From positions 3,448-67,447 of IMG/VR virus record IMGVR_UViG_3300030095_005604: a stretch of 64,000 bases of DNA. One strand, written 5' to 3'. A model generated the notes under the pieces. That model ran no database searches. It was not told where the DNA came from and was given only the letters and a program-made list of their open reading frames with translations. Made by a program: the position numbers and the translations under genes. This stretch comes from a virus (lineage: Duplodnaviria > Caudoviricetes). Positions 62,412 through 62,754 of the stretch are shown one piece after another. Position 1 is the stretch's first letter, and the number at the start of each line of letters is the position of its first letter.

Positions 62412-62754
62412 TAACCCAACAGCACTCTAATCAAATAAAAGCGAATAGAGAGTTGACAAAAGTAAGTTTAATCATCTTGGGGTTACCGAAAGGTTTGATA
62501 ACAGATTAAACTGAAAGTCAACGAAGTTTTTTAACATAGGAGAACTAAATGTTTTGAATAAAATAGAGTAGTTCAGATAAGAAATGTCTTAGTTAGTCAT
62601 ACAGCACTTTACCTTATAAATAGATAAAATAAAACAGACTACCGAAAGGATAAGACGCAAAATTAAAATTATCGTAATTGGTCAATACAGCACTTTATAT
62701 AAATGATACCAAATACAATCAAAAAACAAAGACCACCGAAAGGTATACGATAAT
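62412..62754 (+). ncRNA. Three-copy structured RNA motif array
   Basis: Each copy: stem-ACAGCAC-AT-rich loop-stem-CCGAAAGG, with covarying stems TAACC/GGTTA, TAGTC/GACTA, TGGTC/GACCA. Confidence 0.7.

Follow-up and report, generated by a model that had tools for sequence, protein, structure and literature searches.

Tandem structured RNA units beside a Ro60-like DUF2828 gene of a marine phage: probable Y-RNA-like partners of its product

What is encoded in the few hundred nucleotides behind a DUF2828 gene of a marine phage, where three similar units with a common ACAGCAC core stand in a row? We addressed this question in a 64-kb stretch of phage DNA (IMG/VR record IMGVR_UViG_3300030095_005604, positions 3,448 to 67,447), hereafter the window, on which coordinates are given. 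An earlier note on this DNA had described the array as a three-copy covarying RNA motif and proposed that its RNAs are ligands or regulators of the protein encoded directly upstream, a presumed phage relative of Ro60. Our analysis indicates that the units are small structured non-coding RNA (ncRNA) genes, which probably serve as Y-RNA-like partners of this DUF2828 protein. The gene and the units are as follows, with P1 standing for the outer helix, P2 for the inner helix and P3 for the 3' hairpin.

61037-62383, + strand: DUF2828 and DUF7788 gene, the presumed protein partner; 448-amino-acid product with a von Willebrand factor A (vWA) domain and the MIDAS motif DxSxS (for an adhesion site that depends on metal ions)
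62412-62496, + strand: unit 1 (type 1); P2 TAACCC (62412-62417) with GGGTTA (62480-62485); unpaired A and ACAGCAC (62418-62425); 54-nt conserved insert; P3 CC-GAAA-GG (62486-62493)
62585-62657, + strand: unit 2 (type 2), predicted three-way junction; P1 TGTCTTA/TAAGACG (7 bp); P2 TAGTC (62594-62598) with GACTA (62637-62641); AT and ACAGCAC (62599-62607); 29-nt A/U-rich loop; P3 (62642-62649)
62668-62754, + strand: unit 3 (type 2'), predicted three-way junction; P1 ATTATCGTA/TACGATAAT (9 bp); P2 TGGTC (62679-62683) with GACCA (62731-62735); AAT and ACAGCAC (62684-62693); 37-nt A-rich loop; P3 (62736-62743)

The units lie on the + strand, 22-370 nt 3' of the Ro60-fold gene, and the coordinates of the earlier note hold to within 1-3 nt. 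In all three, P2 (5-6 bp) brackets ACAGCAC and a variable loop, and P3 follows directly after the 3' strand of P2. The elements described as invariant are present in each unit: ACAGCAC at 62419-62425, 62601-62607 and 62687-62693, and CCGAAAGG at 62486-62493, 62642-62649 and 62736-62743. The inner arms pair as described (TAACCC/GGGTTA, TAGTC/GACTA and TGGTC/GACCA), and copies 2 and 3 do have outer helices, (T)GTCTTA/TAAGAC(G) and ATTATCGTA/TACGATAAT respectively; the three-way junction of both copies is also returned by single-sequence minimum free energy (MFE) folding. Outer pairing of copy 1 is minimal (3 bp, AAA/TTT). The composite pattern ACAGCAC-N30-60-CCGAAAGG is found three times in the window, always on the + strand; its mean count in 100 shuffles that preserve dinucleotides is 0.00. 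Further CAGCA sites of the window with stems of 6-8 bp fall in coding sequence and look like chance. The Rfam comparison proposed in the earlier note turned up no unrelated family matching the units: at gathering thresholds the whole window gave no match to the array and a single transfer RNA (tRNA) at 43719, 18 kb away, and at E≤10 the array gave chance-level matches alone, with no YrlA and no tRNA among them.

Three IMG/VR contigs with DUF2828 proteins 83-85% identical to that of the window carry the same RNAs 3' of the gene; in two of the three an extra open reading frame (ORF) lies between gene and array. A covariance model (R1) was built from seven copies and searched in 80 sources, namely the window, the three IMG/VR loci and, retrieved by way of the protein, 76 loci of marine metagenomes. 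It returned 100 matches (76 distinct), each of them downstream of the DUF2828 gene and on its strand. In an alignment of the 76 distinct copies, 99.5% of the P2 cells and 100% of the P3 cells are paired; 11 of the 13 pairs vary on both sides, none of 500 column shuffles equals the observed covariation score, and pairing is lost if partner columns are slid by 1-3. This alignment is fitted to the model, and much of its P2 signal lies between paralogous unit types, so the helices are also listed directly. P2 occurs as UAACCC/GGGUUA, UGGUC/GACCA, UAGUC/GACUA, UGGCC/GGCCA and UGGUCG/UGACCA, and distant relatives use ACCCUU/AAGGGU or CAACCU/AGGUUG. P1 of types 2 and 3 exists in at least seven mutually compensated versions, among them GTCTTA/TAAGAC, GTCATA/TATGAC, GTCGTA/TACGAC and TTCATC/GATGAA of unit 2, and the 9-bp P1 subtype of unit 3 was found in eight distinct copies. 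All three helices covary across the homologs.

Other features of the homologs point the same way. Their P3 loop is GAAA, GCAA or GACA, always GNRA, on a CC/GG or GC/GC stem. Many unit-3 relatives have TGGTCG/TGACCA, in which P2 contains a G-U pair; read from the opposite strand, it would become C-A. Such G-U pairs fit the + strand only, and together with the compensated helices and the GNRA loops they support an RNA read from that strand. ACAGCAC itself has the variants ACAGCAA and ACAGCUC; what is conserved is this stretch, as unpaired ACAGCA(C/A), together with the GNRA hairpin. In type 1, 37 distinct copies have an identical P2 sequence, and RNAalifold on type-1 units recovered P2 and P3 alone, with no fold for the 45-69 nt insert. 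Loops measure 21-69 nt and differ by unit type, and arrays hold 1-4 units, usually type 1 followed by one or two type-2 units. One argument of the earlier note is weak: it had likened the UGGUC/GACYA helix to the Ro60-binding helix of Y RNAs, but copy 1 and distant relatives have UAACCY/RGGUUA or CAACCU/AGGUUG in its place. With the helix not conserved, the likeness is probably coincidental.

The suggested linkage to DUF2828 genes fared better. Homologs are all linked to the gene and share its orientation, and scans made blind to the gene agree. R1 run over five whole virus records (510 kb) placed 11 of 11 matches in arrays beside a DUF2828 gene, and a 27-base composite pattern searched over all IMG/VR recovered the three DUF2828-bearing relatives alone. 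A two-block pattern scan of IMG/VR gave mostly chance matches; the known relatives alone scored with the model. On 85 distant DUF2828 loci, credible R1 matches were limited to two, L203 and L186; therefore the exact variant seen in the window is clade-limited.

The protein side of the proposal rests on structure prediction. By Pfam, the 61037-62383 product matches PF11443 (DUF2828, 2.4e-24) and PF25043 (DUF7788, 9.3e-46) alone, with TROVE (PF05731) absent from the reported matches; it also matches PHROG 850 'RNA-binding protein' (1.3e-114). A profile search against the PDB reached Ro60 only at E 0.058, within the vWA part. We built an AlphaFold2 model with 43 homologs (predicted local distance difference test score, pLDDT, 94.6) and compared it with the PDB by Foldseek: the 13 best matches are Ro60 structures (Xenopus, human, Deinococcus Rsr and Thermus phage phiLo). 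VIA-align to Xenopus Ro60 1yvp gave Z 21.1 with a root-mean-square deviation of 4.2 over 392 aligned residues (model 1-418 versus Ro60 13-537), whereas vWA-only structures score far lower (Z ~11). MIDAS residues D251, S253 and S255 are invariant in the homolog alignment. Given the Foldseek ranking, the Z-score, the full-length alignment and the invariant MIDAS, the modelled product is homologous in structure to Ro60 over its full length and makes a compact ring of Ro60 fold that includes a vWA domain; the predicted HEAT-repeat ring and C-terminal vWA domain with MIDAS are those of Ro60. DUF2828 comprises 6009 clusters at 50% identity and is found in 699 GenBank phage records, some of which annotate it as "Ro-like RNA binding protein"; Felix O1, Listeria P100-type, Staphylococcus, Campylobacter, Vibrio and mycobacteriophages are among them.

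A bridge to known Y RNAs is provided by L203, a locus from a 198-kb IMG/VR contig estimated complete, with a DUF2828 protein of 47% identity. Downstream of its gene stand four units of the window scaffold, interleaved with tRNA genes. The loop of its unit 1 holds a T arm and then a D arm, the permuted order typical of YrlA, and scores 35.5 bits (E 1.9e-5) with the Rfam YrlA model, below the gathering threshold of 69. Read this way, the scaffold of the window encloses a YrlA-like permuted tRNA domain in L203, and one handle therefore holds either short A/U-rich loops or a Y-RNA-type tRNA mimic. L186 (protein 41% identical) carries two units. Very often, DUF2828 genes border or lie within clusters of co-oriented phage tRNA genes, and handle RNAs stand between the tRNAs, which suggests shared transcription and processing; the following loci are examples.

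L203, 3950-6232: tRNA cluster with DUF2828 gene
L286 (Felix O1), 4495-6380: the same
L206, L210, L234, L241: further examples

How might such particles work? In Ro60/Y RNA complexes the ring is contacted on its outer rim by the closing stem, and the remainder of the RNA acts as a gate to the cavity or as a tether for an effector, e.g. PNPase (PMC4201824, PMC12135203). By analogy, we suggest that P2, the unpaired ACAGCAC after its 5' strand and the GNRA hairpin stacked on its 3' strand form a handle that would be the protein-binding module. The loops would be its cargo (in unit 1 the conserved insert of 54 nt, in units 2 and 3 single strands of 29-37 nt that are rich in A/U), tethering the ring protein to another factor or gating its cavity; the A/U-rich strands would suit binders of single-stranded RNA. 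The array probably uses a promoter-like box of its own and may also be read through from the gene, and the transcript would be processed into separate RNAs. Because a PNKP-type phosphatase gene lies nearby and relatives have a tRNA-cluster context, the downstream function could be RNA or tRNA surveillance or repair during infection.

The box noted earlier is present, and its + strand sites in the window are listed here.

62387-62396, + strand: ATACTTATAT box, promoter-like, 9-15 nt before unit 1
5194, 16205, 37484, 58557 and 62387, + strand: ATAYTTATAT sites

ATAYTTATAT occurs eight times in the window versus 2.8 expected, and another three copies on the + strand stand 30-35 nt ahead of ORF starts. 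In relatives, too, unit 1 comes after a similar A/T box, also where gene and array are separated by an inserted ORF. We regard ATAYTTATAT as a candidate for a separate class of phage promoter, different from those with GTTACA boxes. Scans for sigma-70 promoters and intrinsic terminators found nothing inside the array. Metatranscriptomic libraries from three studies gave contigs that span 62408-62600, 62440-62836 and 62455-62691, which is compatible with transcription from about 62403-62408; the lack of ORF cover in these RNA-library runs is uninformative.

As far as computation goes, the homologs, the linkage, the Ro60 fold and the YrlA-like module in a relative support the reading of the units as RNA partners of the DUF2828 protein. 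Several points weigh against it. Folding energies are weak and unconvincing alone (MFE z-scores of -0.8 to -2.1), so that the case for structure must rest on comparison. The loci were mostly gathered through the gene, which makes the linkage partly one of construction; only the five-record and 27-base scans are gene-blind. Independent linkage events are few for the exact variant (the marine clade, L186 and L203), because close relatives share synteny. The three units of the window hold no tRNA-like module and give no YrlA match. Nor do they have the putative Ro60 site of YrlA, GNCGAAN0-1G near the 5' end (PMC4201824): their sole CGAA lies in the 3' hairpin (A)CCGAAAGG, with A as first base, and varies as GNRA. 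Finally, the RNA-library contigs may contain DNA and show neither ends nor strand nor level.

Part of this evidence could be read differently, and we judge it unlikely, though the best of the alternatives, that the units are stable RNAs of the phage tRNA-region type which act independently of the DUF2828 protein and share its regulation alone. They might then act, for instance, as decoys or substrates for host enzymes of tRNA processing or anticodon-nuclease defence, or might bind Hfq, S1 or PNPase. The alternation of units with tRNA genes in L203 and Felix O1, the tRNA-like character of some cargos and the A/U-rich single strands of the window cargos would all fit. However, the handle follows the DUF2828 gene also where no tRNAs are near, as in the window with its distant sole tRNA. 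Moreover, the protein is predicted to have an RNA-binding ring fold whose known relatives bind RNAs encoded beside them (PMC4201824).

It is more improbable still that the units are cis-acting messenger RNA elements. They would then either be stabilisers or processing sites in the 3' untranslated region of the DUF2828 mRNA, or serve the downstream gene as tandem riboswitch-like leaders. The array does lie between two co-oriented genes with no predicted terminator, and a three-way junction whose junction bases do not vary is reminiscent of an aptamer. However, the downstream gene differs among relatives, and in the window a separate boxed promoter precedes it, placed after the array; the handles of distant phages lie upstream, downstream or among tRNA genes, and the array persists when ORFs separate it from the gene. 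Repeats acting at the DNA level, as recombination, replication or protein-binding sites, are suggested by the tandem intergenic arrangement near other DNA repeat boxes (GTTACA boxes) but are extremely unlikely, given helices that keep pairing by compensatory changes while their sequence drifts, strand-specific G-U pairs, tetraloops that are always GNRA and 100 of 100 copies on one strand.

Returning to the units as Y-RNA-like partners, we asked how far a related handle extends among DUF2828 loci. Since R1 misses most distant loci, we located a generic handle with a hand-written descriptor: its stem of 6-8 bp has G as first base and leads into (U/A)(U/A)CAGCA(A/C), after which come a loop of variable sequence and the 3' strand, with N-G next to it. 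In the 85 distant DUF2828 loci the descriptor matched 99 times on the gene strand versus 6 times on the opposite strand, with at least one match in 53 loci, and the instances cluster directly beside the DUF2828 gene. As a control, 796 kb of unrelated viral loci, preselected for ACAGCAC, gave 32 and 29 matches, a rate that is not negligible. Several generic handles enclose weak YrlA-like matches. Felix O1 has four handle units among tRNAs after ORF86, and Listeria P100 has three directly upstream of gp165. Three loci (L004, L267 and L278) carry the generic stem with a GNRA hairpin just inside its 3' strand, a form that is intermediate between the generic and the window forms. The window P2 stems UUGGUC/GACCA and UAACCC/GGGUUA are seen to resemble generic stems read from the other strand. 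We considered the window form as a possible circular permutation or strand-flipped version of the generic handle.

Published data on a P100-like phage touch on the same system. Three highly transcribed non-coding regions near the DUF2828 homolog of Listeria phage CKA15 were suggested as possible Y RNAs (PMC12282133). Mass spectrometry of purified virions also identified the homolog itself, CKA15_055, at 57% coverage (PMC12282133); the DUF2828 protein, perhaps with its RNAs, may be packaged in virions. Handle units of cka14 (26012-26274) barely touch the CKA15 region 26236-26727, and the two records may differ in coordinates, which makes this overlap a lead only.

The spacer between units 1 and 2 and the surroundings of the array hold further features.

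62538-62557, + strand: Shine-Dalgarno-like AGGAG (62538-62542) and two-codon ORF ATG-TTT-TGA (62549-62557), in the spacer between units 1 and 2
60151-60618: stand-alone PNKP-type HAD phosphatase gene, upstream of the Ro60-like gene
57132-58154: UvdE UV endonuclease gene, upstream of the Ro60-like gene
49264-50460: MoxR-type AAA ATPase gene, farther upstream

A Shine-Dalgarno sequence with ATG-TTN-stop (Met-Phe or Met-Leu) is present in 19 of 24 distinct unit 1-unit 2 spacers, drawn from the window, L001-L003 and about 20 metagenome loci; the third base varies and all three stops are used. The two-codon bar minigenes of phage lambda are a likeness. In L162 (about 1880-2090) a 69-codon ORF replaces the minigene, and its start reads like that of a cold-shock (CspA-type) RNA-binding protein. 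The product of the gene after the array has a long acidic tract. Elsewhere in the window, a multi-domain ncRNA at 48821-49163 with two T arms holds CUCAGCACUCU at 49062-49072; because this resembles AACAGCACUCU of unit 1, the ncRNA may carry a related handle.

DUF2828 is a very large family of unknown function, and a conserved co-encoded RNA partner would give it a testable molecular role. If the partner RNAs hold, Ro60/Y-RNA biology would extend to many model phages with easy genetics. The form in the window, a compact three-way-junction handle with a GNRA hairpin and short cargos, would be a minimal candidate binding module.

How do these RNAs relate to known systems? We compared them with generic phage handles, with Y RNAs and with the Class I RNAs of Dictyostelium. 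Generic CAGCAA handle RNAs and the window units are alike in protein family, co-orientation, tandem arrays, a CAGCA core after the 5' strand and swappable cargo. The window clade, together with L186 and L203, differs by the GNRA hairpin after the 3' strand of the stem, and its core ends in C whereas the generic core ends in A. Types 2 and 3 further add the outer helix P1, which makes a three-way junction, so that the handle stem is not at the RNA ends. In the literature on DUF2828 and phage Y RNA-like RNAs we found no description of this RNA, nor did we find an Rfam family for it. The window element is a structural variant, specific to its clade, of a widespread and apparently undescribed RNA family that is tied to a Ro60-fold protein.

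Comparators among Y RNAs are YrlA/YrlB of bacteria and mycobacteriophage (RF02553; Chen et al. 2014, PMC4201824) and Yrl1/Yrl2 of phiLo (PMC12135203). As in these systems, a ring protein of HEAT repeats and a vWA domain is encoded within about 1 kb of one or more small RNAs on the same strand, the RNAs combine a closing stem with a variable module, and a CGAA-containing element lies beside the stem. The placement expected of YrlA, on the same strand and within a few kb of a Ro60-fold gene, is thus found here, with the gene being DUF2828 and not annotated as TROVE. The differences are also clear. By sequence, the window protein is DUF2828/DUF7788 whereas Ro60 is Pfam TROVE, and the conserved element is the unpaired ACAGCA(C/A) instead of GNCGAAN0-1G. 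The permuted tRNA-like module is matched by a relative but not by the window units, which lack the YrlA tRNA-like domain at E≤10; even unit 1 of L203 stays at 35.5 versus the gathering score of 69.

In architecture the generic phage handle matches the Class I RNAs, in which a short stem joins the ends, a conserved 11-nt unpaired motif lies by the 5' strand and the body is variable (PMC7919456); their search pattern is GTTGRCCTTACAGCAA ... GTCAACTG (PMC5054030). These RNAs are eukaryotic, 42-65 nt long, reported as unique to dictyostelids and bound by the RNA recognition motif (RRM) protein Rnp1A (Aspegren 2004; Kjellin et al. 2021, PMC7919456). Both they and the phage handle RNAs have a closing stem, an unpaired (CC)UUACAGCAA directly 3' of its 5' strand and a variable remainder. 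Generic phage handles begin with G and end with C-UG, as do Class I RNAs, and L203 carries the exact Class I 11-mer CCUUACAGCAA. In the window, all three units have P2, then 1-3 nt, then ACAGCAC, and they share with Class I genes a variable remainder and a multi-copy clustered arrangement. In contrast, they are without the 5' G and the 3' UG and have an added GNRA hairpin and outer helix: P2 starts with U, its 3' strand runs into CCGAAAGG, and units 2 and 3 continue into P1, so that the end-joining stem with 5' G and 3' C-UG is absent. The handle match suggests a protein candidate for Class I RNAs, whose mechanism stays unexplained (PMC7919456). Tentatively, and with more doubt than confidence, we put forward that window RNAs, phage CAGCAA handles and Class I RNAs could be one ancient family with a DUF2828 ring partner, a second branch of the Ro60/Y-RNA particle across phages, bacteria and eukaryotes, in which phages would use swappable cargos (tRNA look-alikes or A/U-rich strands) for RNA surveillance or repair, or for countering host defences that target tRNA.
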